Of a stretch of 64,000 bases of DNA, positions 1 through 44,408 are shown piece after piece. Where the stretch lies: assembly GCF_050920415.1 (NCBI RefSeq), contig NZ_CP169309.1. The stretch is one strand, 5' to 3'. The position numbers and the translations under genes are program-made. The notes beneath the pieces were generated by a model that ran no database searches, was not told the DNA's origin, and saw only the letters and a list, made by a program, of their open reading frames with translations. Within the stretch, counting starts at the first letter, position 1. Each line of letters opens with the position of its first letter. The stretch is from Escherichia coli. Its GTDB lineage: Bacteria; Pseudomonadota; Gammaproteobacteria; Enterobacterales; Enterobacteriaceae.

Positions 1-586
1 CGTTTATATCGGTCAGTACTGTATCAACGCCCTGACTTACTTCTTCATTACCTGGTTTCCGGTTTATCTGGTGCAGGCACGCGGGATGTCGATTCTGAAA
101 GCGGGCTTTGTGGCTTCCGTACCGGCGGTTTGCGGTTTTATCGGCGGCGTGTTGGGGGGGATTATTTCAGACTGGCTGATGCGCCGCACAGGTTCGCTGA
201 ACATTGCGCGTAAAACACCGATCGTAATGGGCATGTTGCTGTCGATGGTGATGGTGTTCTGCAACTACGTCAACGTTGAGTGGATGATCATCGGCTTTAT
301 GGCGCTGGCCTTCTTCGGTAAGGGCATCGGGGCGCTGGGTTGGGCAGTAATGGCAGATACCGCGCCAAAAGAGATCAGCGGTCTTTCCGGTGGCCTGTTC
401 AACATGTTCGGTAACATTTCTGGCATCGTCACGCCAATCGCAATTGGTTATATCGTTGGCACGACTGGCTCGTTTAATGGGGCGCTGATTTATGTTGGTG
501 TTCATGCCTTAATCGCGGTACTGAGCTACCTGGTGCTGGTGGGCGATATCAAGCGTATCGAGCTGAAACCTGTTGCGGGGCAATAA
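1..586 (+). CDS. gudP: D-glucarate/galactarate MFS permease, C-terminal part (5' end outside window)
   Basis: ORF 71..586 translation is hydrophobic multi-TM MFS-like; reading frame is open back to the window edge; followed directly by gudX and gudD as in E. coli. Confidence 0.8.
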
Positions 587-587
587 G

Positions 588-1928
588 ATGACGACACAAT
601 CCAGTCCTGTTATTACTGATATGAAGGTTATTCCGGTCGCCGGGCACGACAGCATGTTGCTTAATATTGGTGGTGCACATAACGCATATTTCACCCGCAA
701 TATTGTGGTACTCACCGATAACGCCGGGCATACCGGTATTGGTGAAGCGCCGGGCGGAGAGGTGATTTATCAAACACTGGTCGATGCTATTCCGATGGTG
801 TTGGGCCAGGAAGTTGCGCGCCTGAATAAAGTGGTTCAGCAGGTGCATAAAGGTAATCAGGCAGCCGATTTTGATACCTTCGGCAAAGGTGCCTGGACTT
901 TTGAATTGCGCGTTAATGCCGTGGCGGCGCTGGAAGCCGCCTTGCTAGACCTGCTAGGTAAGGCGCTGAATGTTCCGGTCTGCGAACTGTTAGGGCCAGG
1001 CAAGCAACGCGATGCTATTACCGTCCTCGGTTATCTGTTTTATATCGGTGATCGGACCAAAACCGATCTTCCTTATCTGGAAAATACGCTGGGCAACCAT
1101 GAGTGGTATCAATTGCGGCATCAGAAAGCGATGAACAGCGAAGCCGTTGTGCGTCTGGCGGAAGCTTCACAGGATCGCTATGGCTTTAAAGATTTCAAAC
1201 TTAAGGGCGGCGTGTTACCTGGCGAGCAAGAAATCGACACTGTTCGTGCATTGAAGAAACGCTTCCCGGATGCGCGAATTACCGTTGATCCCAACGGTGC
1301 ATGGCTGCTTGATGAAGCCATTTCTCTGTGCAAAGGGCTGAATGATGTTCTTACCTATGCCGAAGATCCATGCGGAGCAGAACAGGGCTTCTCCGGACGT
1401 GAAGTGATGGCGGAGTTTCGGCGGGCGACCGGCTTGCCCGTCGCGACTAATATGATCGCCACCAACTGGCGCGAAATGGGCCATGCGGTGATGCTCAATG
1501 CGGTAGATATTCCACTTGCCGATCCGCACTTCTGGACGCTTTCCGGTGCAGTTCGCGTGGCGCAGCTTTGCGACGACTGGGGGCTGACCTGGGGCTGCCA
1601 TTCCAACAACCATTTCGATATCTCTCTGGCGATGTTTACCCATGTGGGCGCGGCGGCACCGGGTAATCCTACCGCTATCGATACCCACTGGATTTGGCAG
1701 GAGGGCGATTGTCGCCTGACCCAAAATCCGCTGGAGATTAAAAACGGAAAAATTGCCGTTCCTGATGCGCCCGGTCTGGGCGTGGAACTGGACTGGGAAC
1801 AGGTACAAAAGGCACATGAGGCCTATAAACGTCTGCCTGGCGGTGCGCGTAACGACGCAGGCCCGATGCAGTACCTGATCCCCGGCTGGACCTTTGACCG
1901 TAAACGTCCCGTTTTCGGCCGTCATTGA
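588..1928 (+). CDS. gudX: glucarate dehydratase-related protein (enolase superfamily)
   Basis: ORF 573..1928; likely start at the internal ATG giving [21 protein letters not shown]; paralogous to the next ORF. Confidence 0.9.
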
Positions 1929-1948
1929 TTTTGAAAAAGGACATAAAG

Positions 1949-3289
1949 ATGAGTTCTCAATTTACGACGCCTGTTGTTACTGAAATGCAGGTCATCCCGG
2001 TGGCGGGCCATGACAGTATGCTGATGAATCTGAGTGGTGCACACGCACCGTTCTTCACGCGTAATATTGTGATTATCAAAGATAATTCTGGTCACACTGG
2101 CGTAGGGGAAATTCCCGGCGGCGAGAAAATCCGTAAAACGCTGGAAGATGCGATTCCGCTGGTGATGGGTAAAACGCTGGGTGAATACAAAAACGTTCTG
2201 ACGCTGGTGCGTAATACTTTTGCCGATCGTGATGCTGGTGGGCGCGGTTTGCAGACATTTGATTTGCGTACCACTATTCATGTAGTTACCGGGATAGAAG
2301 CGGCAATGCTGGATCTGCTGGGGCAGCATCTGGGGGTTAACGTGGCATCCCTGCTGGGCGATGGTCAACAGCGTAGCGAAGTCGAAATGCTCGGTTATCT
2401 GTTCTTCGTCGGTAATCGCAAAGCCACACCACTGCCGTATCAAAGCCAGCCGGATGACTCATGCGACTGGTATCGCCTGCGTCATGAAGAAGCGATGACG
2501 CCGGATGCGGTAGTGCGCCTGGCGGAAGCAGCATATGAAAAATATGGCTTCAACGATTTCAAACTGAAGGGCGGTGTACTGGCCGGAGAAGAAGAGGCCG
2601 AATCTATTGTAGCACTGGCGCAACGCTTCCCGCAGGCGCGTATTACCCTCGATCCTAACGGTGCCTGGTCGCTGAACGAAGCGATTAAAATCGGTAAATA
2701 CCTGAAAGGTTCGCTGGCTTATGCAGAAGATCCGTGTGGTGCGGAGCAAGGTTTCTCCGGGCGTGAAGTGATGGCAGAGTTCCGTCGCGCAACTGGCCTG
2801 CCGACCGCAACCAATATGATCGCCACCGACTGGCGGCAGATGGGCCATACGCTCTCGTTACAATCCGTTGATATCCCGCTGGCGGATCCGCATTTCTGGA
2901 CGATGCAAGGTTCGGTACGTGTGGCGCAAATGTGCCATGAGTTTGGCCTGACCTGGGGTTCACACTCTAACAACCACTTCGATATTTCCCTGGCGATGTT
3001 TACCCATGTAGCCGCTGCTGCACCGGGTAAAATTACTGCTATTGATACGCACTGGATCTGGCAGGAAGGCAATCAGCGTCTGACCAAAGAACCGTTTGAG
3101 ATCAAAGGCGGGCTGGTACAGGTGCCGCAAAAACCAGGATTGGGCGTAGAAATCGATATGGATCAGGTGATGAAAGCCCACGAGCTGTATCAGAAACACG
3201 GGCTTGGCGCGCGTGACGATGCAATGGGAATGCAGTATCTGATTCCTGGCTGGACGTTCGATAACAAGCGTCCGTGCATGGTGCGTTAA
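1949..3289 (+). CDS. gudD: D-glucarate dehydratase
   Basis: ORF 1925..3289; likely start at [22 protein letters not shown]; enolase-superfamily fold, close paralog of gudX. Confidence 0.9.
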
Positions 3290-3346: not shown

Positions 3347-6103
3347 TTACCCAAGAATTTTGCTGGCTTCGCGCGCCACATTATCCATCTCGTCCAGCAG
3401 TTCCAGAAGCTCTGGCTCCAAATCTTCTTCTTTAGTACCGCTGCGTAGCTGTTGTTCAATCAGTTGGCAGAGATTCTTCATACGCGGCACACCGCTATAG
3501 CCGCAACTGCCATGCAGTTTATGAATCAAATCAACCAGGCCTTCCGGGTTTTCTCCAACCAGCTGTTCCTCAACTTTGTTGCGAACTTCAGGCAGGAAAT
3601 CGAGTAACATTTGCAGCATATCGCGCGCTAAATCGGTTTTTCCTGCTGCCTGGCGTAGTGCCAGTTGCCAGTCGAGGGTCGCATTCGGGTTCACCACAAT
3701 TTCATTGACTTCGGGGGTCACGACGCGAGAGGAAATACCGCTGCCAGGCTTGTAGCGCAACAGCAAATTATGCAATCGTTCTTCTTCAATCGGTTTCGCC
3801 AGATAATCGCTCATCCCTGCGCCAAGCAGCTTCTCTTTTTGCCCGGCCATTGCATGCGCCGTTACCGCGATAACCGGCGTTTGTTGCTGATGTGGGAGCT
3901 GGTGGATGAGTTCGCAGGCCCGAATTCCGTCCATGTCCGGCATTTGAATATCCATTAAGATCAGATCGAACGGCATCTGTTTCGCCCGTTCAACGGCCTG
4001 ATGCCCGCTATCGCAAAGCTCTACATGTTGCACCATATCTTCCAGCAATGCGCCGATAAGTTTCAGGTTAGCGGGGTTGTCATCAACCGCCATGACTGTC
4101 ATTGCCAGCTTACTTTCATCGGTTACAGGCAAAAGCGTGTTTTGTTTGTGATGACAAAATTCCGTCAGGGCAGGGAACAGGCGCGTAGGTGTTAATGGTT
4201 TCAGCAGACACGCGCCGATACCATCTTGCTTAAGTTTTTCAGCATTGACTTGTGCATGGCAAGGAAGTGCCAGCATCAGAAAATCGGTCATCGATACCGC
4301 TTTCGCTAATCGCTCATGTTGCATTGTTAGCGGCTCGCGGAAGGTCACCGCAATGCCTAATAACATCATGTCGTAATGCGCGGGAGGCAGCGCGGAGAAC
4401 GTTGGGCTATAAACCACTTCCAGCGGCGTTTCACTTAAAATATCCAGCGTGCATTGCGCTGCTGCGGAGTTTGGTTCGACATAGGCCAGGCGCTTGCCGG
4501 CGAGGCACTGGGTGGATGGCCCTTCGATAATAATGTTCGGATTCAGATCGAGATTAATGTGGAACCAGAAAGTTGAACCGCGATTCGGCTGGCTATGGAA
4601 CGAAATATCGCCGCCCATTTCATTAACCAGTTTTTGTGTAATCACCAGCCCCAGCCCGGTGCCACCATGACGGCGGGAAATACTGGCATCAGCCTGTCGG
4701 AAGGCCTGGAATAAGCGCGATTGATCGCGTTCAGGAATACCAATGCCGGTATCCCGAATCTGCACTTCAATCTGCACTTTGGTATTACTCAGCGCACGTT
4801 TTTCTACCAGAATATCAATGTTGCCATTCTCGGTGAATTTAATTGCATTCCCTACCAGGTTAGTGATGATTTGCTGTAATCGCAGTGGGTCGCCAATTAC
4901 GTTATCGGGCACGTCGCTCTTAATATTGAGCGTCAGTTCCAGCCCTTTATCGTGAGAAGAATGTGCCAGCAGGGTAACGACTTCATCCAGCGTGCTGCGT
5001 AGTGGGAATGGAATACTTTCCAGAATCAGCTTACCTGCTTCCAGTTTCGAGAAGTCGAGAACATCATTAATAATTGCCAGCAAATTATTTGCCGAACGTT
5101 CAATCGTATTCAGGTGATCGCGCTGCGTTGGCGTTAATTCTGTTTTCAGCGTCAGGCGGGTAAAGCCAATAACACCATTCAGTGGTGTACGCAGCTCGTG
5201 TGACATATTTGCCAGAAACTCGGATTTAATACGCGCCGCTTCCTGGGCGCGCTTTTTCGCCAGATCCAACTCAACGTTCTGAATTTCCATCTGCTCCAGC
5301 GTTTCACGTAGATCGGACGTCGCCTGGTCGATATTGTGCTGCATCTCTTCGTGATAAGCTGCCAGCGACATTGCCATCGAGTTGATACCGTTTTTCAGCA
5401 TATCCAGCTCGCCGAGCATAAATCCTTCCACCCGGCTGTCGAGTTGCCCGCGACGGATGCGGTCGACGGTATTCACCATGTTGCGAATCGGACCGGTTAC
5501 ATCGCGCATTAAGCGCCAGCCAAAAATAAGCGCAATACCGATACAAAACAGCATCATCACGCTGGAAATAAAGATCTCTTTATATTGCTGCAAGCGAACC
5601 GATTTAAGATCCAGCTCAAGCGCAATATATCCCAACATATTTTGACTATTTTTGGCATCGCTACTGGGCGATTCGTCGGGGGAGTAACTCTCAGAAATAA
5701 TCGGCGTGCGGAGGATCATAATATCGCCGTCACGAGTGACAGTGAGCTGGCGAGGAAACGGCACGTTGCTGCCGAGCTGCATTGATGAGGGATCAAGATG
5801 AAAATTGGAGGTGACAAAGAGTCGGTTATTTTCATCATAAACCGAAATCGCGCGAACAATATCGGAATGGCGACGATGCAGTACGCTTATTAACTGACCG
5901 ATAGATTCGCGATTTTGCAGGCTCATGCCATATTCAGTAGAAACTGCAAGCGGCTCAATAATGCTGGCTCCGGCATCTTCCAGTTGACGCTGCAAGTCGT
6001 TATAGCGATGCACAACGAAAAAGATACTCAGCAATAAACCAATAAGGACGGTCGGTGCCAGGATCAGAATCATCATGCGTGCGCGCAGGCTGTAGTTGGT
6101 CAT
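3347..6103 (-). CDS. barA: hybrid sensor histidine kinase BarA (HAMP, HisKA/HATPase, receiver, Hpt)
   Basis: 918-aa ORF; H-box SHELRTPLN, receiver [14 protein letters not shown]-terminal Hpt region. Confidence 0.95.
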
Positions 6104-9743: not shown

Positions 9744-9752
9744 TCATGCATA

Positions 9753-9790
9753 GCTGGATATGGCATCAGCCGTATCCAGCGGTATCTTTT
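9753..9790 (+). terminator. hairpin downstream of relA (possible terminator)
   Basis: GCTGGATA-12 nt loop-TATCCAGC followed by ggtatctttt; the T tract is weak. Confidence 0.4.
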
Positions 9791-9838
9791 ACTCGAAGGT
9801 ATTACACCTGACAGACCCGCAATTTTCAGGACATTCTA

Positions 9839-12567: not shown

Positions 12568-13881
<1,314 letters not shown>

Positions 13882-13900
13882 GCCTGACTTTATCTGATTT

Positions 13901-13931
13901 AAAAATGCCAGCCTTCGGGCTGGCATTTTTT
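13901..13931. terminator. bidirectional rho-independent terminator between eno and the convergent TPM gene
   Basis: aaaaaTGCCAGCC-ttcg-GGCTGGCAtttttt. Confidence 0.65.
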
Positions 13932-13940
13932 ATGGTTGAG

Positions 13941-14813
13941 TTACCAGCGACCGGAAGCACCGCCACCGCCAGAAGAACCGTCACCTCCGCTAAATCCGCC
14001 ACCACTTGAGCCGCCACCAGAACCGCCGCTGTCTGAATGATAACTTCTACCTGATGCTTTTTTCTGTGGGACACATAACCAGGTAAAGACCATAATGATG
14101 GTGAAAGTAAAAAAGAAGGAAAATACAGCAATGGAAAAAGTTTGATCGGAGAACAGGAATAAATCTATAAGATAGACTGTTGAAATACAAACACTGCTTT
14201 TAAATGCCCGACAAAAATTATTGCCTTGATGAAAAAACCAGAAAGGGAAGAACATCACTGCAAATACCCAAAAAATAGCAAAGTAGTAATGATCACTGGA
14301 AGACGCTGATTCACTTTCTGAAGGATTAGACGAATATTGGTGTTGTGAAGTGAGTTGGTTATTCAAAGCGATTATAGCTAACTCTCATCCCTTAGCTAAT
14401 TTTTGTTTTTTAAAGGCGGGTATCATGATGTTACGGATGATATTGCCAGCCAGAGCATCGGTTACCTTTTCTTCCAGCCCATAACCTACCTGAATGCGGA
14501 CAGTTCGATCCGACCAGGCAACAACGATCAGTATCCCATCATTACGTTTGGCATCTCCTAAACGCCAATTGTCAAAAACCCTTGTAGCATATTGTTCAAT
14601 AGAATCGCCTCCGGTGGATGGCACTATTAATACAGCGACCTGTGCCCGTGTTTTTTGTGTAATATCCTGCAGCTGTTGTGTCAGTGATTGTTGTTCAGAC
14701 GTGCTTAAGGTACCAGTAATATCGGTCACCTGTTGGCGCAGCTCCGGCACAGCAATTTGCTGGGCAAGCACAGGAAGGCACCATAAAGTGAGTAGAAAAA
14801 GGATTATACGCAT
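13941..14813 (-). pseudogene. YgcG-like TPM-domain membrane protein, copy 3, interrupted by an in-frame TGA
   Basis: ORFs 14385..14825 (signal peptide + TPM domain) and 13941..14366 (TM helices + Gly/Ser tail ...GGGGASGRW) are in the same frame, separated only by TGA at 14385..14387 and 6 sense codons; the downstream ORF begins with TTG, not ATG. Confidence 0.6.
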
Positions 14814-14818
14814 AACGA

Positions 14819-15966
14819 TCACCAACGGTCGGATGAACCGCCACCGCCAGAAGAACCGCCGCCACCGCGGAAAGAGTTTTTCGACGAAGAACGAGAATGA
14901 GCATTACGATTCCCCGTTTTCTTGTTGCTTTTATGCCCTGATCCCAGTTTAAGATTGCCAGTAAATTTGGCCACAATGATCAGCAGAACGATGCCAGCAA
15001 TGGTTATTGGGCCGATAAAATGATCAATTAGCCCAATAATTGTTGAGATGAACGCAATATCTTTATTACTGGCGAATACCAGGCACCATCCCACAACAAT
15101 TATCAGCAGCACGACAAACAATGAATTTCGTCCTGATTCACGAACCTGCGGAGCCTTCTTTTGTTTTTTCACTTTAGCGTTTTTATTTTGGGGGGCCAGC
15201 ATCATAGGAAATGTGCGGCATATATTAAAAACTACCGCGAGACGCTGCCAGCAGATTGCTGCGAAAAATAAACTAAAACAAACGACCGATACCCGCCGAA
15301 TGATGACATCGTCCTGAAAGGAGAAAAACCAGACCATAGGAGTAATCATCGATATCATCCATATGCCAGGCCCGGGACGGCTGGTAAATCGCCAGAGGAC
15401 AACGATGGCAACGATCATCAGTAATGTCCAGGCAAGACATGGCAGCGAGCGTTGCGGATTAGCAAACAGATGATTGGCTAAAGCATCCAAAGGGCTAAGA
15501 TTCGCTTTTATATAGGTAAACTGTGCGATGCCTTCAATTCCCTGCGTTAACCCGGAGAAGAGATTATTTTTTTGAATTCCGGTTGCATATGGTAATGAAC
15601 AATTTGCGCAGCTTGTTCCGGTGGCAGCATCTCTTCCAGTCCATGCCCAATCTTCATTGACGCCAGCCCTTCCGGCCAAACGACGAGAATTAAGATACCT
15701 TCGCCGTACCGCTTCTCTCCAACAGGTTTCCAGTGATATAACCCGTAGCTTTGCGAGGCTGCAAGTTTAATGTCTTTACCCCCAGTGGTCAGCGTTACCA
15801 ACACGGCAACCTGAAAGTGGTTTTGCTGCTCGAGAGTCTGTAATTGTTGAGTTAAAGCAGTTTGTTCTTCTGTCGTTAATGTCCCGGTTAAGTCAGTTAC
15901 TGAAGGCAATTGTTCAGCGAATGCCTGGAAACCACATAGCATCAGAAGTAAGAGAAAAATACGCAT
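14819..15966 (-). pseudogene. YgcG-like TPM-domain membrane protein, copy 2, frame-shifted at an A7 run
   Basis: ORF 15547..15966 (signal + TPM domain) and ORF 14819..15679 (5 TM helices + tail ...[15 protein letters not shown]) overlap in different frames; similarity to the intact paralog continues across the shift (LFSGLTQGIEGI vs LAGGLQKGISDI); switch point is the T7/A7 tract at 15567..15573. Confidence 0.6.
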
Positions 15967-15980
15967 TTCAATTCCTTTTG

Positions 15981-16919
15981 TTACCAGCGCCCGGAGGCGC
16001 CACCGCCGCCAGATGAACCGCCGCCGCCGCTGAAATTATCATTGTCAAAAGAGGATGAAGAGGAAGATGACGACGATGATGAAGAACGCCTGGAGGCCGA
16101 GTTACTTCTTTCGTAATGTGACGGTCGGTTGGCACTGCGCATCGAATCCCGAACCTTTTTGCCGAAGGGGGTAAAAGCGATGGCGACAGCCAGGAACGGT
16201 GTGGCGAAGCAGAGTAATGTTGCGAGTACTCCCCAGCTTCCGCTGAAACCTGCTATAGGTAAAACAAAGGCCAGTACAATAGCTGTGAAGCAAATTAGTC
16301 CCAGCGTTTTGACATATCCTCTGGCGGAAATAAAGGTCAGTACTATTGCCCAGACTAACAAAGCCCACCAACCGCTAAAGGGCAAAGGGTGATCGGTCGG
16401 TGTTATCGCTTCTAAATTATTCCCCGTCAGACGATTATCAATATCGCTTATTCCCTTTTGCAAGCCGCCAGCAAGGTCGCCATTTTTAAATGCCGGAATA
16501 ATACTGTTGCGAATAATTTTCCCGGACTGCGCATCCGTAATAACGCCTTCCAGTCCGTAACCGATTTCAATACGCACGGTATGATCCTGCCAGGCGACTA
16601 ACAGTAGAACGCCATCATCGCGGTCTTTATCTCCGGGTTTCCAGCTATCGAATACCCGCGTTGCGTACTGCTCGATGGTTTCATCGCCTGTGGTTTCAAC
16701 CACTAACACGACCAGTTGTGCGTGGCTTTTTTGCGTCAGCTCTTTAATCTGATTGGTCAACGTATTTACTTCATCGTTCGTCAATTTGCCGGTTAAGTCA
16801 TTCACATACCTGGGTGATTCAGGCACTGGAATTTGTATGGCAAACACAGATGAACAAAAGAAAGCCATAAGGAAGATAAAATTTCGCACAGGACTTCCTC
16901 GCTTAATGAGCATTAGCAT
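15981..16919 (-). CDS. YgcG-family TPM-domain membrane protein, intact copy (312 aa)
   Basis: signal peptide, TPM domain, 3 TM helices, poly-Ser tract, C-terminal [15 protein letters not shown]; probably the ygcG ortholog but which copy is orthologous cannot be decided from sequence alone. Confidence 0.8.
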   Translation of the reverse strand: MLMLIKRGSPVRNFIFLMAFFCSSVFAIQIPVPESPRYVNDLTGKLTNDEVNTLTNQIKELTQKSHAQLVVLVVETTGDETIEQYATRVFDSWKPGDKDRDDGVLLLVAWQDHTVRIEIGYGLEGVITDAQSGKIIRNSIIPAFKNGDLAGGLQKGISDIDNRLTGNNLEAITPTDHPLPFSGWWALLVWAIVLTFISARGYVKTLGLICFTAIVLAFVLPIAGFSGSWGVLATLLCFATPFLAVAIAFTPFGKKVRDSMRSANRPSHYERSNSASRRSSSSSSSSSSSSFDNDNFSGGGGSSGGGGASGRW

Positions 16920-17505
16920 TCTGGCTAAAATCTATTGTTGGGGTTTTACTCACAGCGGCGACATCATCCGGTAAATAATTTTTCTTCGGTGTGTAATCCA
17001 TGACTTTTGCGGTTAACACTGCGGGGAATTTGCGGATAGTGACATTATATTGTTCGATGGCTTTAATATATCTTCCTCGCGCAACGGCAATTCGATTTTC
17101 ACTTCCTTCGAGCTGTACCATCAAATTTTGATAGAGTTCCTGGGCCTTTAGCTCAGGGTAACGTTCACTAATTATCGTTAACTGACCGAGAGTGCGAGAC
17201 ACCTGCGCCTGGGCCTGTTGCCAGACTTGTAATTTTTGTTCATCCCCCGGAGTTTGCTGAAGATCGCTACTGGCGCGATTAGCCTGACTACGTGCCAATG
17301 TTACGGCTTCCAGTACCTCTTGTTCATGGCTGGAATAACCTTTAATACTAGCGACAAGATTAGGAATAAGATCGGCGCGACGTTGATATTGATTTAATAC
17401 CTCAGACCAGGAAGCGTTAACCTGCTCATCATAGGTTTGAATATCGTTATATCCACAGCCTGATAAATTGAAAATAAATATAATTACGATGAATATTCTG
17501 AGCAT
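16903..17505 (-). CDS. LemA-family lipoprotein
   Basis: 200-aa ORF with lipobox (FNLSGCGY) and LemA-like coiled region; its 3' end overlaps the start of the TPM gene (translational coupling). Confidence 0.8.
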   Translation of the reverse strand: MLRIFIVIIFIFNLSGCGYNDIQTYDEQVNASWSEVLNQYQRRADLIPNLVASIKGYSSHEQEVLEAVTLARSQANRASSDLQQTPGDEQKLQVWQQAQAQVSRTLGQLTIISERYPELKAQELYQNLMVQLEGSENRIAVARGRYIKAIEQYNVTIRKFPAVLTAKVMDYTPKKNYLPDDVAAVSKTPTIDFSQNANAH

Positions 17506-17677
17506 GGTTAAATTCCTTTTAATTAATTCCTTAAAACATAATACGCCACTTCATTTTATTCTTTATGATCTAATCCACTTTTTGCCTTAAACCTGCCTGT
17601 AACAGAATGTTAATAAGACATGATTGTTGTGGCAGGATCTGCAATAATTAACAATTATCCACTTCACAGAGAATGCT

Positions 17678-18349
17678 ATGCAGTACCCGATTAACGAGAT
17701 GTTCCAGACCCTGCAAGGTGAGGGTTACTTTACCGGCGTCCCCGCCATTTTTATTCGTTTACAGGGATGCCCGGTCGGCTGTGCCTGGTGCGACACCAAA
17801 CACACCTGGGAAAAGCTTGAGGATCGGGAAGTCTCCCTTTTCAGCATTCTGGCGAAGACCAAAGAGAGTGATAAGTGGGGGGCGGCGAGCAGTGAAGATT
17901 TGCTGGCTGTCATTGGTCGTCAGGGATACACCGCGCGGCATGTGGTGATTACGGGTGGTGAGCCTTGCATTCATGATTTGCTGCCACTGACTGACCTGCT
18001 CGAAAAGAACGGTTTTAGCTGCCAGATCGAAACCAGCGGTACTCATGAAGTACGCTGCACGCCGAATACCTGGGTTACCGTATCGCCAAAGCTGAACATG
18101 CGCGGCGGCTATGAAGTGTTGTCACAGGCACTGGAGCGAGCCAACGAAATCAAGCATCCAGTGGGACGCGTACGTGATATTGAAGCACTGGATGAACTAC
18201 TGGCAACGCTGACCGATGATAAACCACGAGTCATTGCACTGCAGCCAATTAGCCAGAAGGACGATGCCACACGTTTGTGCATTGAAACCTGTATTGCGCG
18301 TAACTGGCGTTTATCGATGCAAACACATAAATATTTAAATATTGCCTGA
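17678..18349 (+). CDS. queE: 7-carboxy-7-deazaguanine synthase (radical SAM)
   Basis: 223-aa ORF; Cys motif CPVGCAWC; MQYPINEMFQTLQGEGYFTG. Confidence 0.92.
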   Translation: MQYPINEMFQTLQGEGYFTGVPAIFIRLQGCPVGCAWCDTKHTWEKLEDREVSLFSILAKTKESDKWGAASSEDLLAVIGRQGYTARHVVITGGEPCIHDLLPLTDLLEKNGFSCQIETSGTHEVRCTPNTWVTVSPKLNMRGGYEVLSQALERANEIKHPVGRVRDIEALDELLATLTDDKPRVIALQPISQKDDATRLCIETCIARNWRLSMQTHKYLNIA

Positions 18350-18539: not shown

Positions 18540-18687
18540 GGTATAGAGTTATTTTAAATATTTACTTTTTTAATCAATGGATTAAGTGTTCTTTAACATA
18601 ATGGATGTGTTGTTTGTGTGATCCTGTAAAGTTGGTAGATTGTGACTGGCTTAAAAAATCATTAATTAATAATAGGTTATGTTTAGA
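18540..18687 (+). promoter_or_regulatory. putative leader of the queE-proximal CRISPR array
   Basis: AT-rich sequence immediately 5' of the first repeat, same polarity as the repeats. Confidence 0.4.
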
Positions 18688-18899
18688 GAGTTCCCCACGT
18701 CAGCGGGGATAAACCGCTATACGAAGTTATTAGGTCCGAAGAGGAGTTGAGTTCCCCACGTCAGCGGGGATAAACCGTTTACGTGTTATCGCGCACCGGC
18801 GACGGTGTGGAGTTCCCCGCGCCAGCGGGGATAAACCGATTCAGCAAATAGCGAATTTCATAAATATGATGTGTTCCCCGCGCCAGCGGGGATAAACCA
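18688..18899 (+). CRISPR. type I-E CRISPR array, 4 repeats / 3 spacers (ygcE-queE array)
   Basis: 29-bp repeats at 18688, 18749, 18810, 18871 with 32-bp spacers (period 61); repeats 1-2 are the variant GAGTTCCCCaCGtCAGCGGGGATAAACCG, repeat 3 is canonical, repeat 4 is degenerate (GtG..., terminal a). Confidence 0.9.
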
Positions 18900-19352
18900 C
18901 CATATAACCCGTTATCTCTTTCTCAAGTTTTTATATTAGCTGTACTTGTAATAAGCAACATATCCACATAACACCTCATGTTCAAAATAGTTCCCCATGC
19001 CAGATAAGTTCACAATTATCGATACAAAAAATCAAATTTAATCAAAGTGTTATATGTATAATCCTTAAACCGTTAAGAAATTTTAATATATTATTTTTTT
19101 AATATTAATTAATGCCTGTTAATTTTTTCTTTAGAATAACAGTGTATTTTTTAAGCTTGTTATTCATTGATTAAGTAATAAATCTGGAAGTTTGTCTTTG
19201 TTTTGAGGCTAATGAGTGGTTTTACATAACCGCCTCTATACGCTGTTGATGAATAGTTCTTATGAATAAAGATATCCAGTTCATACTTTAAGTGAAAATT
19301 GATAAAGTGCGATTCGTATTGTCTTTTATTCTAAAGACATCGAGTGTAGTTA

Positions 19353-19490
19353 ATATTCCTTGTAAAAACAGGGATAAACCGAACTAGTTAAAGTTTTTAT
19401 TATGTTCCCTGCATCAGCGGGGATAAACCGGACTTGTTATCATTTTTTAAGTTGTCGAACTTATGTTCCCCGCGCCAGCGGGGATAACCA
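19353..19490 (+). CRISPR. degenerate CRISPR remnant (2-3 decayed repeats)
   Basis: repeat-like units ending at 19381, 19430 and 19490 (atGTTCCCtGCatCAGCGGGGATAAACCG; atGTTCCCCGCGCCAGCGGGGATAACCA) with one 32-bp spacer 19431..19462. Confidence 0.6.
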
Positions 19491-35455: not shown

Positions 35456-35757
35456 TGCGAGCCGCATTCCGGCATTTAAACGTGAATATAGCAGGGGAAA
35501 TCAACAGTTATAGAATGGCGTCGGGTGCTTGAGGCTGTCTGGCGTTAAGCATTCGCGAGGTTCCAGATGGACAAAAGCCCCAGGCGATATATCTATCAAC
35601 CTGAGGCTCGCGTTCGAACGTAGCAATTCGGATGTTAGTCTCTTCTTTGCAGGGAGGCAAGACATGTGTATATCACTGTAATTCGATATTTATGAGCAGC
35701 ATCGAAAAATAGTCCACTGATATCATCGATAATACTAAAAAAACAGGGAGGCTATTA

Positions 35758-38424
35758 ATGGAACCTTTTAAATATATATGTCATTACTGGGGGAAATCCT
35801 CAAAAAGCCTGACGAAAGGAAATGATATTCATCTGTTGATTTATCATTGCCTGGATGTTGCAGCTGTTGCAGATTGCTGGTGGGATCAATCAGTCGTACT
35901 ACAAAATGCTTTTTGCCGAAATGAAATGCTATCAAAACAGAAGGTGAAAGCCTGGCTGTTATTTTTCATTGCCCTTCATGATATCGGAAAGTTTGATATA
36001 CGATTCCAATATAAATCAGCAGAAAGTTGGCTGAAATTAAATCCTGCAACGTCATCACTTAATGGTCCATCAACACAAATGTGCCGTAAATTTAATCATG
36101 GTGCAGCCGGTCTGTATTGGTTTAACCAGGATTCACTTTCAGAGCAATCTCCCGGGGATTTTTTCAGTTTTTTTGATGCCGCTCCTCATCCTTATGAGTC
36201 CTGGTTTCCTTGGGTAGAGGCCGTTACAGGACATCATGGTTTTATATTACATTCCCAGGATCAAGATAAGTCGCGTTGGGAAATGCCAGCTTCTCTGGCA
36301 TCTTATGCTGCGCAAGATAAACAGGCTCGTGAGGAGTGGATATCTGTACTCGAAGCATTATTTTTAACACCAGCCGGGTTATCTATAAACGATATACCAC
36401 CTGATTGTTCATCATTGTTAGCAGGTTTTTGCTCGCTTGCTGACTGGTTAGGTTCCTGGACCACAACGGATACCTTTCTATTCAAAGAAGATGCACCTTC
36501 AGGCATACAAGCGCTAAGAAAATATTTTCAGGATAGACAACAGGATGCGTGTCGGGTACTGGAGTTGAGTGGCCTTGTATCAAATAAGCGTAGTTATGAC
36601 GGCGTACATGCCTTACTGGACAATGGCTATCAACCAAGACAATTACAGGTGTTGGTTGATGCTCTTCCTACAGCTCCCGGGCTGACGGTGATTGAGGCAC
36701 CTACGGGATCAGGTAAAACCGAAACAGCGCTGGCCTATGCCTGGAAACTTATTGACCAACAACTTGCGGATAGTGTTATTTTTGCCCTCCCTACACAAGC
36801 TACTGCAAATGCAATGCTCAGCAGAATGGAAGCGAACGCGAGCCGTTTATTTACCTCCCCAAATCTTATTCTTGCTCATGGTAATTCACGTTTTAACCAC
36901 CTTTTTCAATCAATAAAATCACGCGCATTTACTGAGCAGGGGCAAGAAGAAGCGTGGGTTCAGTGTTGCCAATGGTTGTCACAAAGCAATAAGAAAGTGT
37001 TTCTTGGGCAAATAGGAGTTTGCACGATTGATCAGGTGTTGATATCGGTATTGCCAGTTAAACACCGCTTTATCCGTGGTTTGGGAATTGGTCGAAGTGT
37101 TTTAATTGTTGATGAAGTTCATGCTTACGACACGTATATGAACGGCTTGCTGGAGGCTGTGCTCAAGGCTCAGGCTGATGTGGGGGGGAGTGTTATTCTT
37201 CTTTCCGCAACTCTACCAATGAAACAAAAACAGAAACTTCTGGATACTTATGGTCTGCATACAGATCCAGAGGAAAATAACTCCGCATATCCACTCATTA
37301 ACTGGCGAGGTGTGAATGGTGCGCAACGTTTTGATCTGTTAGCTCATCCAGAACAACTCCCGCCCCGCTTTTCAATTCAGCTAGAACCTATTTATTTAGC
37401 TGACATGTTACCTGACCTTACGATGTTAGAGCGAATGATCGCAGCGGCAAACGCGGGTGCACAAGTCTGTCTTATTTGCAATTTGGTTGACGTTGCACAA
37501 GTATGCTACCAACGGCTAAAGGAGCTAAATAACACGCAAGTAGATATAGATTTGTTTCATGCACGCTTTACGCTGAACGATCGTCGAGAAAAAGAGAATC
37601 GTGTTATTAGCGATTTCGGAAAAAATGGGGATCGAAATGTTGGACGAATACTTGTCGCCACGCAAGTCGTGGAACAATCGCTCGACGTTGATTTTGATTG
37701 GTTAATTACCCAGCATTGTCCCGCAGATTTGCTTTTCCAACGATTGGGCCGTTTACATCGTCATCATCGCAAATATCGTCCCGCTGGTTTTGAGATTCCT
37801 GTTGCCACCATTTTGCTGCCTGATGGCGAGGGTTACGGACGACATGAGCATATTTATAGCAACGTTAGAGTCATGTGGCGGACGCAGCAACATATTGAGG
37901 AACTTAATGGAGCATCCTTATTTTTCCCTGATGCTTACCGGCAATGGCTGGATAGCATTTACGATGATGCGGAAATGGATGAGCCAGAATGGGTCGGCAA
38001 TGGCATGGATAAATTTGAAAGCGCCGAGTGTGAAAAAAGGTTCAAGGCTCGTAAGGTTCTGCAGTGGGCTGAAGAATATAGCTTGCAGGATAACGATGAA
38101 ACCATTCTTGCGGTAACGAGGGATGGGGAAATGAGCCTGCCATTATTGCCTTATGTACAAACGTCTTCAGGTAAACAACTGCTCGATGGCCAGGTCTACG
38201 AGGACCTAAGTCATGAACAGCAGTATGAGGTGTTAGCACTTAATCGCGTCAATGTACCCTTCACTTGGAAACGTAGTTTTTCTGAAGTAGTAGATGAAGA
38301 TGGGTTACTTTGGCTGGAAGGGAAACAGAATCAGGATGGATGGATCTGGCAGGGTAATAATATTGTTATTACCTACACTCGGGATGAAGGGATGACCAGA
38401 GTCATCCCTGCAAATCCCAAATAA
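35758..38424 (+). CDS. cas3: type I-E Cas3 HD nuclease / SF2 helicase
   Basis: 888-aa ORF; HD motif (LHDIGKF), Walker A APTGSGKTE, DEVH box (IVDEVHAYD). Confidence 0.96.
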   Translation: MEPFKYICHYWGKSSKSLTKGNDIHLLIYHCLDVAAVADCWWDQSVVLQNAFCRNEMLSKQKVKAWLLFFIALHDIGKFDIRFQYKSAESWLKLNPATSSLNGPSTQMCRKFNHGAAGLYWFNQDSLSEQSPGDFFSFFDAAPHPYESWFPWVEAVTGHHGFILHSQDQDKSRWEMPASLASYAAQDKQAREEWISVLEALFLTPAGLSINDIPPDCSSLLAGFCSLADWLGSWTTTDTFLFKEDAPSGIQALRKYFQDRQQDACRVLELSGLVSNKRSYDGVHALLDNGYQPRQLQVLVDALPTAPGLTVIEAPTGSGKTETALAYAWKLIDQQLADSVIFALPTQATANAMLSRMEANASRLFTSPNLILAHGNSRFNHLFQSIKSRAFTEQGQEEAWVQCCQWLSQSNKKVFLGQIGVCTIDQVLISVLPVKHRFIRGLGIGRSVLIVDEVHAYDTYMNGLLEAVLKAQADVGGSVILLSATLPMKQKQKLLDTYGLHTDPEENNSAYPLINWRGVNGAQRFDLLAHPEQLPPRFSIQLEPIYLADMLPDLTMLERMIAAANAGAQVCLICNLVDVAQVCYQRLKELNNTQVDIDLFHARFTLNDRREKENRVISDFGKNGDRNVGRILVATQVVEQSLDVDFDWLITQHCPADLLFQRLGRLHRHHRKYRPAGFEIPVATILLPDGEGYGRHEHIYSNVRVMWRTQQHIEELNGASLFFPDAYRQWLDSIYDDAEMDEPEWVGNGMDKFESAECEKRFKARKVLQWAEEYSLQDNDETILAVTRDGEMSLPLLPYVQTSSGKQLLDGQVYEDLSHEQQYEVLALNRVNVPFTWKRSFSEVVDEDGLLWLEGKQNQDGWIWQGNNIVITYTRDEGMTRVIPANPK

Positions 38425-38838
38425 CTTCGGGAATGATTGGTATCAATGACGATAACAAGACCAATAACGGTTTATCCCTACTTAAGTAGGGAAGGTGCAC
38501 AATGTACATCTTCTTTTAATTTCCCGGTATGAGATTTTATATTCACAGTATGAATATTTTATGTAATAAAATTTATGGTAATTATTATAACTAAAAATTT
38601 CTTTGATAATAAAACGAATAACTTGCAGATTTGAAATGCATGCATTATTGTCTTTAAACAATTCAACACATCTTAATATATGCATAGGTTAATTGTATTA
38701 AACCAATGAATATATTTTTGCAGTGAATGTGATTATTGAATTAATTACGCCGTATTTTTTCTTTGTTTTTACCGATAACGGAAGTGTGCCGACGTATAGA
38801 AATGCAGGAGAAATGTCGGAGCATATGAAGGAGAACAA
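38425..38838. promoter_or_regulatory. cas3-casA intergenic region holding the casA operon promoter (H-NS/LeuO-controlled in K-12)
   Basis: very AT-rich 414-bp spacer directly upstream of casA; the regulatory role is from established K-12 knowledge, not read from the sequence. Confidence 0.55.
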
Positions 38839-40347
38839 ATGAATTTGCTTATTGATAACTGGATCCCTGTACGCCCGCGAAACGGGGGGAAAGTCCAAAT
38901 CCTAAATCTGCAATCGCTATACTGCAGTAGAGATCAGTGGCGGTTAAGTTTGCCCCGTGACGATATGGAACTGGCCGCTTTAGCACTGCTGGTTTGCATT
39001 GCACAAATTATCGCCCCGGCAAAAGATGACGTTGAATTTCGACATCGCATAATGAATCCGCTCACTGAAGATGAGTTTCAACGACTCATCGCGCCGTGGA
39101 TAGATATGTTCTACCTTAATCACGCAGAACATCCCTTTATGCAGACCAAAGGTGTCAAAGCAAATGATGTGACTCCAATGGAAAAACTATTGGCAGGGGT
39201 AAGCGGCGCGACGAATTGTGCATTTGTCAATCAACCGGGGCAGGGTGAAGCATTATGTGGTGGATGCACTGCGATTGCGTTATTCAACCAGGCGAATCAG
39301 GCACCTGGTTTTGGTGGTGGCTTTAAAAGCGGTTTACGTGGAGGAACACCTATAACCACCTTCGTATGTGGGATCGATCTTCGCTCGACGGTGTTACTCA
39401 ATGTCCTCACAATACCTCGTCTTCAAAAACAATTTCCCAATGAATCAAATACGGAAAACCAACCTACCTGGATTAAGCCTGTCAAGCCCAATGAATCTGT
39501 GCCAGCTTCGTCAATTGGGTTTGTCCGTGGCTTATTCTGGCAACCAGCGCATATTGAATTATGCGATCCCATTGGGATTGGTAAATGTTCTTGCTGTGGA
39601 CAGGAAAGCAATTTGCGTTATACAGGTTTTCTTAAGGAAAAATTTACCTTTACAGTTAATGGGCTATGGCCCCATCCGCATTCCCCTTGTCTGGTAACAG
39701 TCAAGAAAGGGGAGGTTGAGGAAAAATTTCTTGCTTTCACCACCTCCGCACCATCATGGACGCAAATCAGCCGAGTTGTGGTAGATAAGATTATTCAAAA
39801 TGAAAATGGAAATCGCGTGGCGGCGGTTGTGAATCAATTCAGAAATATTGCGCCGCAAAGTCCTCTTGAATTGATTATGGGGGGATATCGTAATAATCAA
39901 GCATCTATTCTTGAACGACGTCATGATGTGCTGATGTTTAATCAGGGGTGGCAACAATACGGCAATGTTATAAACGAAATAGTGACTGTTGGTTTGGGGT
40001 ATAAAACAGCCTTACGCAAGGCGTTATATACTTTTGTGGAAGGTATTAAAAATAAAGACTTTAAAGGGGCTGGAGTCTCTGTTCATGAGACTGCAGAAAG
40101 GCATTTCTATCGACAGAGTGAATTATTAATTCCCGATGTATTGGCGAATGTTAATTTTTCCCAGGCTGATGAGGTAATAGCTGATTTACGAGACAAACTT
40201 CATCAATTGTGTGAAATGCTATTTAATCAATCTGTAGCTCCCTATGCACATCATCCTAAATTAATAAGCACATTAGCACTCGCCCGCGCCACGCTATACA
40301 AACATTTACGGGAGTTAAAACCGCAAGGAGGGCCATCAAATGGCTGA
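38839..40347 (+). CDS. casA: Cascade large subunit Cse1
   Basis: 502-aa ORF, first gene of casABCDE-cas1-cas2. Confidence 0.95.
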   Translation: MNLLIDNWIPVRPRNGGKVQILNLQSLYCSRDQWRLSLPRDDMELAALALLVCIAQIIAPAKDDVEFRHRIMNPLTEDEFQRLIAPWIDMFYLNHAEHPFMQTKGVKANDVTPMEKLLAGVSGATNCAFVNQPGQGEALCGGCTAIALFNQANQAPGFGGGFKSGLRGGTPITTFVCGIDLRSTVLLNVLTIPRLQKQFPNESNTENQPTWIKPVKPNESVPASSIGFVRGLFWQPAHIELCDPIGIGKCSCCGQESNLRYTGFLKEKFTFTVNGLWPHPHSPCLVTVKKGEVEEKFLAFTTSAPSWTQISRVVVDKIIQNENGNRVAAVVNQFRNIAPQSPLELIMGGYRNNQASILERRHDVLMFNQGWQQYGNVINEIVTVGLGYKTALRKALYTFVEGIKNKDFKGAGVSVHETAERHFYRQSELLIPDVLANVNFSQADEVIADLRDKLHQLCEMLFNQSVAPYAHHPKLISTLALARATLYKHLRELKPQGGPSNG

Positions 40348-40822
40348 TGAAATTGATGCAATGGCTTTATATCGAGCCTGGCAACAGCTGGATAACGGAG
40401 CATGTGCGCAAATTAGACGTGTTTCAGAACCTGATGATTTACGCGATATCCCTGCGTTTTATCGGTTGGTGCAACCTTTTGGTTGGGAAAACCTGCGTCA
40501 CCAACAGGCTCTTTTGCGCATGGTGTTTTGCCTGAGCGCAGGAAAGAATGTCATCCGACATCAGGATAAAAAACCGGAGCAAACAATAGGTATCTCGTTG
40601 GGAAGAGCTTTAGCCAATAGTGGAAGAATTAACGAGCGCCGTATCTTCCAATTGATTCGGGCTGACAGAACAGCCGATATGGTCCAGTTACGTCGATTGC
40701 TTGCTCACGCCGAACCCGTACTTGACTGGTCATTAATGGCCCGGATGTTGACCTGGTGGGGAAAGCGCGAACGCCAGCAACTTCTGGAAGATTTTGTATT
40801 GACCACAAACAAAAATGCGTAA
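40340..40822 (+). CDS. casB: Cascade small subunit Cse2
   Basis: 160-aa ORF overlapping casA by 8 bp. Confidence 0.95.
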   Translation: MADEIDAMALYRAWQQLDNGACAQIRRVSEPDDLRDIPAFYRLVQPFGWENLRHQQALLRMVFCLSAGKNVIRHQDKKPEQTIGISLGRALANSGRINERRIFQLIRADRTADMVQLRRLLAHAEPVLDWSLMARMLTWWGKRERQQLLEDFVLTTNKNA

Positions 40823-40834
40823 GGAAACCTCTCA

Positions 40835-41926
40835 ATGTCTAATTTTATTAATATCCATGTCCTGATCTCTCACAGCCCTTCATGTCTGAACCGCGACGAT
40901 ATGAACATGCAGAAAGACGCTATTTTCGGCGGGAAAAGGCGAGTAAGAATTTCAAGTCAAAGCCTTAAACGTGCGATGCGTAAAAGTGATTATTACGCAC
41001 AAAATATTGGTGAATCCAGTCTCAGAACAATTCATCTTGCACAATTACGTGATGTTCTTCGGCAAAAACTTGGTGAACGTTTTGAGCAAAAAATCATCGA
41101 TAAGACATTAGCTCTGCTCTCCGGTAAATCAGTTGATGAAGCTGAAAAGATTTCTGCCGATGCGGTTACTCCCTGGGTTGTGGGAGAAATAGCCTGGTTC
41201 TGTGAGCAGGTTGCAAAAGCAGAGGCAGATAATCTGGATGATAAAAAGCTGCTCAAAATTCTTAAGGAAGATATTGCCGCTATCCGTGTGAATTTACAGC
41301 AGGGGGTTGATATTGCGCTTAGCGGAAGAATGGCAACCAGCGGCATGATGAGTGAGTTGGGAAAAGTTGATGGTGCAATGTCCATTGCGCACGCGATCAC
41401 GACCCATCAGGTTGATTCTGATATTGACTGGTTCACCGCCGTAGATGATTTACAGGAACAAGGTTCTGCACATCTGGGAACACAGGAATTTTCATCGGGT
41501 GTTTTTTATCGTTATGCCAACATTAACCTTGCTCAACTTCAGGAAAATTTAGGCGGCGCCTCCTGGGAGCAGGCTCTGGAAATTGCAACCCATGTTGTTC
41601 ATATGCTGGCAACAGAGGTCCCTGGAGCAAAACAGCGTACTTATGCCGCTTTTAACCCTGCGGAGATGGTAATGGTTAATTTCTCCGATATGCCACTTTC
41701 TATGGCAAATGCTTTTGAAAAAGCGGTGAAAGCGAAAGATGGCTTTTTGCAACCGTCTATACAGGCGTTTAATCAATATTGGGATCGCGTTGCGAATGGC
41801 TATGGTCTGAACGGAGCTGCTGCGCAATTTAGCTTGTCTGACATGGACCCAATTACTGCTCAGGTTAAACAAATGCCTACTTTAGAACAGTTAAAATCCT
41901 GGGTTCGTAATAATGGCGAGGCGTGA
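40835..41926 (+). CDS. casC: Cascade backbone subunit Cas7e
   Basis: 363-aa ORF; [22 protein letters not shown]. Confidence 0.95.
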
Positions 41927-41928
41927 AC

Positions 41929-42603: not shown

Positions 42604-43189
42604 AATCATCATTGCCAGGGCCTGTAGCAGGGATCTTTACCAACTTCACCAGGGATTATGGCATTTATTTCCAAATAGACCAGATGCTGCTCGTGATTTT
42701 CTTTTTCATGTTGAGAAGCGAAACACACCAGAAGGCTGTCATGTTTTATTGCAGTCAGCGCAAATGCCTGTTTCAACTGCCGTTGCGACAGTCATTAAAA
42801 CTAAACAGGTTGAATTTCAACTTCAGGTTGGTGTTCCACTCTATTTTCGGCTTCGGGCAAATCCGATCAAAACTATTCTCGACAATCAAAAGCGTCTGGA
42901 CAGTAAAGGGAATATTAAACGCTGTCGGGTTCCGTTAATAAAAGAAGCAGAACAAATCGCGTGGTTGCAACGTAAATTGGGCAATGCGGCGCGCGTTGAA
43001 GATGTGCATCCCATATCGGAACGGCCACAGTATTTTTCTGGGGAAGGTAAAAATGGAAAAATCCAAACGGTTTGCTTTGAAGGTGTGCTCACCGTCAATG
43101 ACGCATCAGCGTTAATGGATCTTATACAGCAAGGTATTGGGCCAGCCAAATCGATGGGATGTGGTTTGCTATCTTTGGCTCCACTGTGA
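42590..43189 (+). CDS. casE: Cas6e crRNA endoribonuclease
   Basis: 199-aa ORF; MYLSKIIIARA... Confidence 0.95.
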   Translation: MYLSKIIIARACSRDLYQLHQGLWHLFPNRPDAARDFLFHVEKRNTPEGCHVLLQSAQMPVSTAVATVIKTKQVEFQLQVGVPLYFRLRANPIKTILDNQKRLDSKGNIKRCRVPLIKEAEQIAWLQRKLGNAARVEDVHPISERPQYFSGEGKNGKIQTVCFEGVLTVNDASALMDLIQQGIGPAKSMGCGLLSLAPL

Positions 43190-43204
43190 TTGAGGTGTAA
43201 TAAA

Positions 43205-44408
<1,204 letters not shown>

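Follow-up and report, generated by a model that had tools for sequence, protein, structure and literature searches.

The gap between eno and queE in Escherichia coli contig NZ_CP169309.1 (assembly GCF_050920415.1), analysed here within a window of 64,000 nucleotides (nt), is filled by four minus-strand genes, one encoding a LemA-family lipoprotein and three encoding paralogous proteins with a TPM domain, termed TPM-1, TPM-2 and TPM-3 (Table 1). An earlier, sequence-only reading of this stretch had described the same four same-strand genes, and open reading frames (ORFs) and homology searches bear this out. It had also taken the locus for a lineage-specific expansion of the single ygcG gene of K-12. 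The evidence presented below points the other way. As a whole, the locus is best explained as an ancestral LemA-TPM envelope operon that is in decay, with a probability of roughly 0.78. Most E. coli, including K-12, would have lost lemA, TPM-1 and TPM-2 by deletion and kept ygcG (TPM-3) together with the small gene yqcG. The present strain would represent an early stage of decay, in which TPM-2 and TPM-3 were knocked out very recently.

The four-gene form is very probably ancestral in Escherichia, and the K-12 form a deletion remnant of it. This is based on the low identity between the paralogues, on the occupation of the same chromosomal slot in two other taxa, on a relic of lemA in K-12, and on a census of E. 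coli genomes together with the identity of the carriers. Pairwise amino acid identity among the three TPM copies is 33–40% (37% between TPM-1 and TPM-3). In E. albertii the slot has the order ygcE-queE-lemA-TPM1-TPM2-TPM3-eno-pyrG, and Entomohabitans teleogrylli has lemA and two TPM genes between queE and eno. Nucleotide identity of the locus is 85–88% with E. albertii and 67–73% with Entomohabitans. In a neighbour-joining tree of TPM domains, all Escherichia and Entomohabitans copies cluster together, apart from the long TPM proteins of other proteobacteria, and the duplications would therefore have taken place within this enterobacterial lineage, long before E. coli.

Among 5426 complete E. 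coli genomes, lemA is present in 1454, TPM-2 in 1104, and at least 80% of the whole interval in 1102. Carriers include 536, CFT073, ATCC 11775 and O157:H7. The arrangement is not ordinary core sequence but a presence/absence polymorphism found in approximately 20–27% of complete E. coli genomes. The sequence-only reading had allowed that most E. coli might carry the identical four genes, which is not the case at this frequency. The alignment to K-12 and other E. coli that it had proposed reveals a polymorphic locus of which K-12 has a remnant.

At the eno-queE position, a K-12-type genome has only ygcG, encoding 290 amino acids, and the 46-codon yqcG. The earlier statement that K-12 carries one ygcG here was thus accurate for the K-12-type genome, with yqcG to be added. 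K-12 YgcG (UPF0603/TPM, b2778) is the positional orthologue of TPM-3; both genes adjoin eno and share the same terminator, and they are ~91% identical in nucleotide sequence over the 3′ 80% of the gene. At the amino acid level, TPM-3 is 77% identical to K-12 YgcG and 97% identical to TPM-3 of strain SCU-301. The two loci differ in that K-12 has no lemA, TPM-1 or TPM-2, whereas in the window yqcG is not a gene and the ygcG orthologue carries a stop codon.

The relic of lemA is found at yqcG. The queE/lemA intergenic region is 85% identical to that of K-12, and in the BLAST high-scoring segment pair the homology runs 35 nt into lemA; the 5′ half of K-12 yqcG and the DNA upstream of it match the lemA upstream region and the first 35 nt of that gene. 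Codons for IIFIF...ND are common to yqcG and lemA. In the alignment the start codon of yqcG falls 33 nt 5′ of that of lemA, at an untranslated ATG-TTT-TAA in the window, and a 1-nt deletion just 3′ of the old lemA ATG brings the signal-peptide codons of lemA into this upstream frame. LemA residues ...VIIFIFNLSGCGYND thus have their counterpart in ...KIIFIFSVLVFND of YqcG, where the lipobox is destroyed. The yqcG ORF is frameshifted in sequence type 131 (ST131) and in an O166:H15 strain. In all likelihood, then, YqcG is a vestige of lemA that consists of its 5′ untranslated region and degraded signal-peptide codons. If this is true, laboratory E. coli have lost by natural deletion a module that is still present in CFT073, 536 and O157:H7.

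In the present strain, one TPM copy is intact and the other two are disrupted in different ways but retain full-length coding potential, as had been noticed from the sequence alone; the disruptions are a 1-nt deletion in TPM-2 and a TTA to TGA change in TPM-3. TPM-2 has seven A residues (A7) in a homopolymer run that has eight in the nearest alleles (98.5–98.9% identical), and these nearest relatives are all 1 nt longer. In more distant alleles the run is interrupted, GAAAAAAG. When one A is added back, a clean frame of 382 amino acids ending in SSDRW is obtained. TPM-2 is intact in SCU-301, 95-3192, 2013C-4282 and N96, and the A7 lesion is private to this genome among the 5426 complete assemblies.

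In TPM-3 a TTA (Leu) codon has become TGA, which falls between the TPM domain and the membrane part. The gene is otherwise of full length (290 amino acids) and carries the RefSeq note 'internal stop'. The identical TGA allele is present in one other complete genome only, that of N96, from a Tibetan pig. N96 was sequenced independently, and the TPM-3 lesion is therefore real. The nearest intact alleles are 98.9% identical for TPM-2 and 98.1% identical for TPM-3. Both lesions appear from these comparisons to be recent, and this would be why both genes keep their full-length coding potential.

It may be asked whether the disruptions amount to a loss of function at all. The A7 run could be an assembly error or be compensated by slippage, the TGA could be read through, and all paralogues could be made. 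Homopolymer miscalls are common in long-read assemblies and, of the stop codons, UGA is the one most prone to readthrough in E. coli, which lends support to this alternative, as does the finding that both genes retain full-length coding potential and have no secondary lesions. Yet this alternative is quite unlikely. The TGA allele is no error, being identical in N96. No other pseudogene or frameshift is flagged in 50 kb of the same record, and a wholesale homopolymer error is therefore improbable. No known recoding signal is found at either site, and an Rfam scan of 12.5–19.6 kb matched no RNA element. In addition, unrelated inactivating lesions in the same genes of other strains fit genuine decay.

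TPM-1 aligns end to end with intact orthologues and is 89% identical in amino acid sequence to its SCU-301 orthologue; an alternative start, an upstream ATG at 16919, would give 312 amino acids. RefSeq flags TPM-1 (16218–16889) as 'partial, missing C-terminus', and the same flag is attached to intact ORFs of 301–302 amino acids elsewhere. Since the TPM-1 ORF is complete and nothing is missing from it in these alignments, the flag is probably an artefact of annotation. The interval 13882–17677 is 100% identical to that of E. coli MFDS1022581 (NZ_CP169399.1), and RefSeq record NZ_CP169399.1 annotates the four genes alike, with all three TPM genes flagged as pseudogenes. A nonsense-truncated TPM-1 allele of 224 amino acids from strain 2009C-3554 (WP_001243487.1) is annotated as a normal protein.

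Other strains have lesions of other kinds. BH100N has a different TPM-2 frameshift; 2009C-3554 has a nonsense codon in TPM-1 and a TPM-2 deletion; in 19M19 both TPM-2 and TPM-3 are replaced by an unrelated ORF; and HZDC01 has a deletion mediated by the insertion sequence (IS) IS1. The array thus appears to decay repeatedly and independently, and the present strain would be one more case. The A run was considered as a recurrent slippage hotspot, and this was discarded because the BH100N frameshift sits elsewhere. In 19M19 (positions 3603–3965 of its locus stretch), a hydrophobic hypothetical protein of 120 amino acids, WP_000034929.1, is encoded next to eno, and it adjoins eno in strains that have only lemA and TPM-1.

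The ratio of non-synonymous to synonymous divergence (dN/dS) is 0.18–0.39 for the TPM genes, and 0.03–0.08 for lemA compared with other alleles. Where the genes were kept, they appear to have been under purifying selection in the past.

LemA begins with MLRIFIVIIFIFNLSGC, a signal peptide with the canonical lipobox L-S-G-C that would leave the mature end CGYN, and it is a predicted lipoprotein. The lipobox LSGC followed by GYN, with predicted lipidation, corresponds to the N-terminal anchor of the LemA family (Pfam PF04011). Residues 22–178 match the 'lemA protein' of PDB entry 2ETD (phmmer E-value 9.9e-33) and thus show homology to the LemA helical bundle. MamQ of the magnetosome and Thermotoga maritima LemA (2ETD) belong to the same helical-bundle family. 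LemA is matched by the MamQ equivalog model NCBIfam NF040966 with an E-value of 1e-25, but its score of 90.3 bits is far below the cutoff of 250, and it differs from MamQ in being a predicted lipoprotein rather than TM-anchored (TM, transmembrane) and in having no magnetosome context. LemA also matches the PHROG family phrog_1383, annotated 'virion structural protein', with an E-value of 2e-22; LemA-like proteins thus occur in phage genomes.

Each of the three TPM proteins has a signal peptide, a TPM domain, TM helices and a Gly/Ser-rich tail, and the description of the tails as ending in GRW or DRW is correct for every copy (GGGGASGRW in TPM-1, GGGGSSDRW in TPM-2 and ASGRW in TPM-3). Signal cleavage is predicted after VFA (before I) in TPM-1, after AFA (before E) in TPM-2 and after VLA (before Q) in TPM-3. 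By predicted topology all three are long TPM proteins of the YgcG type, in which the TM helices are odd in number and the tail is cytoplasmic, and TPM-2 has a longer polytopic membrane part than its paralogues. Their blastp E-values are 2e-64 for TPM-1/TPM-3, 2e-26 for TPM-1/TPM-2 and 5e-27 for TPM-2/TPM-3, so that the paralogy is far beyond chance.

All three belong to the TPM family (Pfam PF04536, TLP18.3/Psb32/MOLO-1). TPM-2 matches PF04536 with an E-value of 3.3e-21. TPM-1 matches the TPM domains of PDB entries 7TBR (1.9e-21) and BA41/5ANP (6.5e-19), and also PG0361/2KW7. The TPM domain of TPM-3 is supported by its E-value of 2e-64 to TPM-1 and by a sub-threshold Psb32 match of 1e-9. None of the three is a Psb32 equivalog (NCBIfam NF047379): two score 33.4 and 38.3 bits against a cutoff of 160, and TPM-2 has no match.

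The predicted layout of TPM-1 is a signal peptide, a periplasmic TPM domain, three TM helices, a poly-Ser linker and a Gly-rich tail. An AlphaFold2 (AF2) model, built on an alignment of 70 homologues, has a mean predicted local distance difference test (pLDDT) score of 79, a TPM domain above 90, three TM helices and a disordered Ser-rich linker, and it superposes on 5ANP with a TM-score of 0.88–0.90 on the target. Foldseek matches of TPM-1 are BA41, 7TBR, PG0361, Psb32 (8C7I), TLP18.3 (3PVH), BA42 and LMTP1, as well as the TPM-fold subunits of the mycobacterial CIII2CIV2 supercomplex (6ADQ_J, 8OVC_V). Positively charged loops, RGYVKT and GKKVRDSMR, fit the prediction of three TM helices and a cytoplasmic tail. 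LemA and the three TPM domains are strongly predicted to be exported.

Residues invariant in the 70 long TPM proteins are D31, G93, E114 and P132 within the domain, and G288–291, G295–297, S299 and W302 at the C-terminus. The Gly-rich C-terminal tail GGGGxSGxW (15984–16010 in TPM-1) is the most conserved element of long TPM proteins. In the AF2 model the last ~10 residues of TPM-1 form a beta-strand with pLDDT 80–96. The TPM-2 orthologue of E. albertii NBRC 107761 (positions 3844–4983 of its locus stretch) ends in GGGGASGR followed by two stop codons, and the otherwise invariant terminal Trp is thus lost.

A scan for LemA with one genome per species gave the 80 best-matching loci. The lipobox-CGYN motif is present in 78 of the 80 proteobacterial LemA homologues, and practically every locus has one long TPM gene, with a product ending in GGGGxSGxW, downstream of lemA. 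In 56 loci this is followed in turn by a short TPM protein of ~170 amino acids with the tail NELPDxPxxL, which has no signal peptide or TM helix and is therefore taken to be cytoplasmic. The short TPM gene is absent from all Escherichia, Entomohabitans and Erwinia loci sampled and from the window, and likewise from the sampled loci of Erwinia persicina, the Pseudomonas nitroreducens group and Burkholderia. Clustering of the ORFs of the 80 loci shows no other conserved neighbour, the next cluster being present in 15.

The Escherichia operon is a variant of this widespread LemA/long TPM/short TPM cassette. It shares the LemA CGYN motif and the invariant GGGGxSGxW end of the long TPM protein, and it differs in having three long TPM genes (four types across strains) and no short one. 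The LemA of the canonical cassette is presumably COG1704, which is found with YgcG-type proteins. BA41 (5ANP) shares the long-TPM architecture including the tail, and BA41 and BA42 of Bizionia argentinensis look like the two TPM types.

The functional model that is proposed here is tentative and argues from analogy. LemA and the TPM domains would act together as a complex at the periplasmic face of the inner membrane. Induced by stress, this complex would help to assemble membrane protein complexes or serve them as an accessory factor, or would support membrane integrity, in each case without enzymatic activity. The model draws on the solved TPM relatives, which are photosystem II factors and respiratory-supercomplex subunits, on CcoZ, and on the argument for a chaperone-like role. 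Psb32, TLP18.3 and LMTP1, which function in photosystem II assembly or repair, have the TPM fold, export to the P side and TM anchoring, and this likeness is the basis of the proposed accessory or assembly role. They are only 14–19% identical, however, and lack both a LemA partner and the Gly-rich tail with its terminal Trp, and a photosystem is absent from E. coli. The TPM subunits of the mycobacterial CIII2CIV2 supercomplex and Campylobacter CcoZ have TPM domains that are bound on the periplasmic side of respiratory complexes, and CcoZ is needed for cbb3 oxidase activity in Campylobacter. Here the differences are an identity of 13–18% and another architecture, and no link between the E. coli module and a respiratory complex was found. 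Ravi et al. (2024; PMC11237479) make the case for TPM as a chaperone-like domain and against its being a phosphatase.

As to regulation, the homologous intergenic region of K-12 binds the sigma-S holoenzyme, as found by chromatin immunoprecipitation sequencing (ChIP-seq) and systematic evolution of ligands by exponential enrichment (SELEX). It also binds PhoP-P, and deletion of yqcG raises queE expression. The RefSeq name of YqcG is 'cell envelope stress response protein'.

An enzymatic role has been claimed for TLP18.3, BA42 and BA41, and TPM proteins might by extension be periplasmic phosphatases or nucleotidases, in which case the operon would hydrolyse periplasmic phosphoesters or nucleotides. 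D31 and E114 of the TPM domain, which are invariant in the alignment of 70 homologues, are compatible with such a role. This is quite unlikely, as both Ravi et al. (2024) and Burroughs et al. (2025) consider the assignment improbable, and the structurally characterised TPM proteins of known context are non-catalytic partners of membrane complexes. Moreover, the most conserved element of the long TPM proteins is the non-enzymatic Gly-rich tail, and three diverged paralogues and a lipoprotein are more readily explained by binding than by one enzymatic function.

The alleles of the array are deeply divided. Synonymous divergence (dS) among E. coli alleles is 0.2–0.3, several times that of the flanking eno, and for TPM-1 and TPM-2 it approaches the values between E. 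coli and E. albertii; the alleles are thus old or were imported. Four paralogue types are found across strains, namely TPM-1, TPM-2 and, in the last position, '3a' and '3b'. Type 3a is the ygcG class and is found in the window, SCU-301 and K-12; type 3b is found in 95-3192, 2013C-4282, 2009C-3554 and E. albertii. The first ~200 nt of 3a and 3b are nearly identical, whereas the membrane part has only ~40% nucleotide identity. K-12 ygcG has a third, divergent 5′ end, its first ~200 nt being 53–60% identical. A simple TPM-1/TPM-3 fusion was considered as the origin of K-12 ygcG and was rejected, as these divergent 200 nt match no paralogue of the window. SCPM-O-B-8794 has the order lemA-TPM1-3b-3a, and 3b adjacent to 3a was found in none of the 5426 complete E. 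coli genomes.

Perhaps the array is a strain-variable envelope module under long-term diversifying or balancing pressure, which would be targeted, or act as a sensor, during conflict with phages or other bacteria, or would be a new envelope defence. This very unlikely reading takes its cue from the four diverged paralogue types, the split TPM-3 classes with gene-converted 5′ ends, a within-species dS near the E. coli/E. albertii distance, the recurrent loss, and the adjoining array of clustered regularly interspaced short palindromic repeats (CRISPR).

Much of the same evidence could be marshalled for a mobile island, that is, an anti-phage or inter-bacterial module in a variable hotspot beside the CRISPR array. 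Variable presence and recurrent loss, deep allele classes with a within-species dS of 0.2–0.3, two TPM-3 classes with mosaic 5′ ends and ~40% nucleotide identity in the membrane part, a GC content of 0.38–0.48 against 0.50–0.54 in the flanks, a CRISPR array just beyond queE in many strains, and the match of LemA to a PHROG annotated as virion structural protein are all in keeping with it. However, no match to PADLOC-DB v2 was found at an E-value of up to 0.01 for LemA, TPM-1, TPM-2 or TPM-3, and the module borders have no integrase, IS element, tRNA gene or repeats. The chromosomal slot is fixed across genera, and E. coli has no plasmid copies, the single 97% match being a 4.9-Mb record. The cassette is widespread and self-contained in beta- and gammaproteobacteria, and the dN/dS values are far lower than 1 and give no hint of positive selection over whole genes. 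A mobile island is accordingly highly improbable.

A recent lineage-specific expansion, in which a K-12-like ygcG was duplicated twice and lemA added, would suit the one TPM gene of K-12-type genomes, the ~73% of genomes matching the interval that are without lemA, and the one long TPM per cassette of other proteobacteria (copy number thus rose at some point), but it is exceedingly improbable in view of paralogues only 33–40% identical, an array in the same slot in E. albertii and in part in Entomohabitans at identities that argue against recent transfer to these taxa, the 5′ relic of lemA in K-12, and carriers that include B2 strains as well as O157:H7. What stands of the earlier claim is that an older expansion did occur, as seen from the one TPM clade and the one long copy elsewhere; what falls is its placement in this lineage.

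Several points weigh against the interpretation of the locus as a decaying ancestral envelope operon. The lemA-proximal half of the intergenic region has diverged in K-12. Salmonella, Klebsiella, Citrobacter and E. fergusonii are not among the best 80 close LemA matches, and with this outgroup sampling an ancestral state is established for Escherichia, while for the Enterobacteriaceae it depends solely on Entomohabitans. The genes may also have been acquired by recombination through the conserved flanks, and the A7 frameshift could be a single assembly miscall. Repeated loss shows that the module is dispensable in many niches. With respect to function, ORF clustering of the 80 loci shows no conserved neighbour that points to a partner complex; no functional study of a LemA-TPM operon was found in the literature, so that the earlier statement that these modules have no established function holds to the extent that no paper establishing one was found. 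Regulation of the operon by sigma-S and PhoP would be an extrapolation from K-12. Lastly, the AF2 model docks the invariant tail onto the TPM sheet, which clashes with the predicted cytoplasmic tail because the TPM sheet is the only sheet and is placed across the membrane. Docking in trans onto the cytoplasmic short TPM protein of canonical cassettes was tried with AF2 in a paired fusion to its cognate tail and discarded, the tail being disordered with pLDDT below 50.

Table 1. Features of the eno-queE interval and its flanking genes in the window.
Feature	Position	Strand	Description
eno	12583-13881	+	flanking gene
Terminator hairpin	13901-13930	.	bidirectional intrinsic terminator; A-run, 13-bp stem, T-run; operon 3′ end
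TPM-3	13941-14813	-	K-12 ygcG orthologue, class '3a'; 290 codons, one nonsense codon
Premature TGA in TPM-3	14385-14387	-	from comparison with SCU-301; TTA (Leu) in intact alleles
TPM-2	14819-15966	-	frameshifted pseudogene of a 382-amino acid TPM paralogue; two overlapping ORFs
A7 homopolymer	15567-15573	-	TPM-2 frameshift site; from alignment of seven alleles
TPM-1	15981-16889	-	intact long-type (YgcG-like) TPM protein, 302 amino acids from GTG 16889
lemA	16903-17505	-	LemA-family periplasmic lipoprotein, 200 amino acids, intact; RefSeq 'LemA family protein'
queE/lemA divergent intergenic region	17506-17677	.	presumed operon promoter; homologous to K-12 queE-yqcG intergenic region
queE	17678-18349	+	flanking gene

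The four genes lie head to tail with gaps of 5–14 nt. They are expected to form a single operon, given this tight spacing, one upstream intergenic region and one terminator. The terminator hairpin is common to the convergent eno and TPM-3 genes, and its RNA folds with -20.3 kcal/mol and a z-score of -6.0. A scan for consensus promoters and terminators gave no more sites than in shuffled sequence and missed this hairpin.

On the far side of queE, CRISPR repeats of type I-E (GTTCCCCGCGCCAGCGGGGATAAACCG-like, with a spacing of 61 nt) occur in short runs at 18682–18902 and 19396–19480, between queE and ygcE. They are unannotated in the RefSeq record of this strain, although an array is annotated at the corresponding place in other strains. 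At 35697–45274, ~18 kb from the lemA-TPM genes, the window also has a complete type I-E CRISPR-Cas locus, with cas3, casA-E, cas1e, cas2e and an array of 822 bp. In the ST131 genome (positions 1–1276 of its locus stretch), genes for sucrose utilisation adjoin queE, one for sucrose-6-phosphate hydrolase and one, interrupted by a stop codon, for a regulator of the LacI family. The region beyond queE is thus variable as well, a hotspot in which ST131 has sucrose genes and other strains have ygcE and the CRISPR array. At some distance, the gap between relA and mazG (9744–9838) is only ~95 nt and is without the mazEF toxin-antitoxin pair; HZDC01 has mazE-mazF there.

With genes that are annotated and families that are known, the locus is an ordinary object, polymorphic for presence and absence and with pseudogenes that arose recently. 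Even so, few bacterial envelope proteins without an assigned role are as widespread as LemA and TPM proteins, and E. coli offers a ready genetic system for them, as the full operon is found in about one-fifth of strains, well-studied pathogens among them. K-12 would be a natural deletion of lemA, TPM-1 and TPM-2 that keeps the promoter region, and the present strain a natural knock-out of TPM-2 and TPM-3. Finally, the reading of yqcG changes: this K-12 'small protein', on which studies of queE regulation have drawn, seems to be what is left of a gene and not a gene in its own right.

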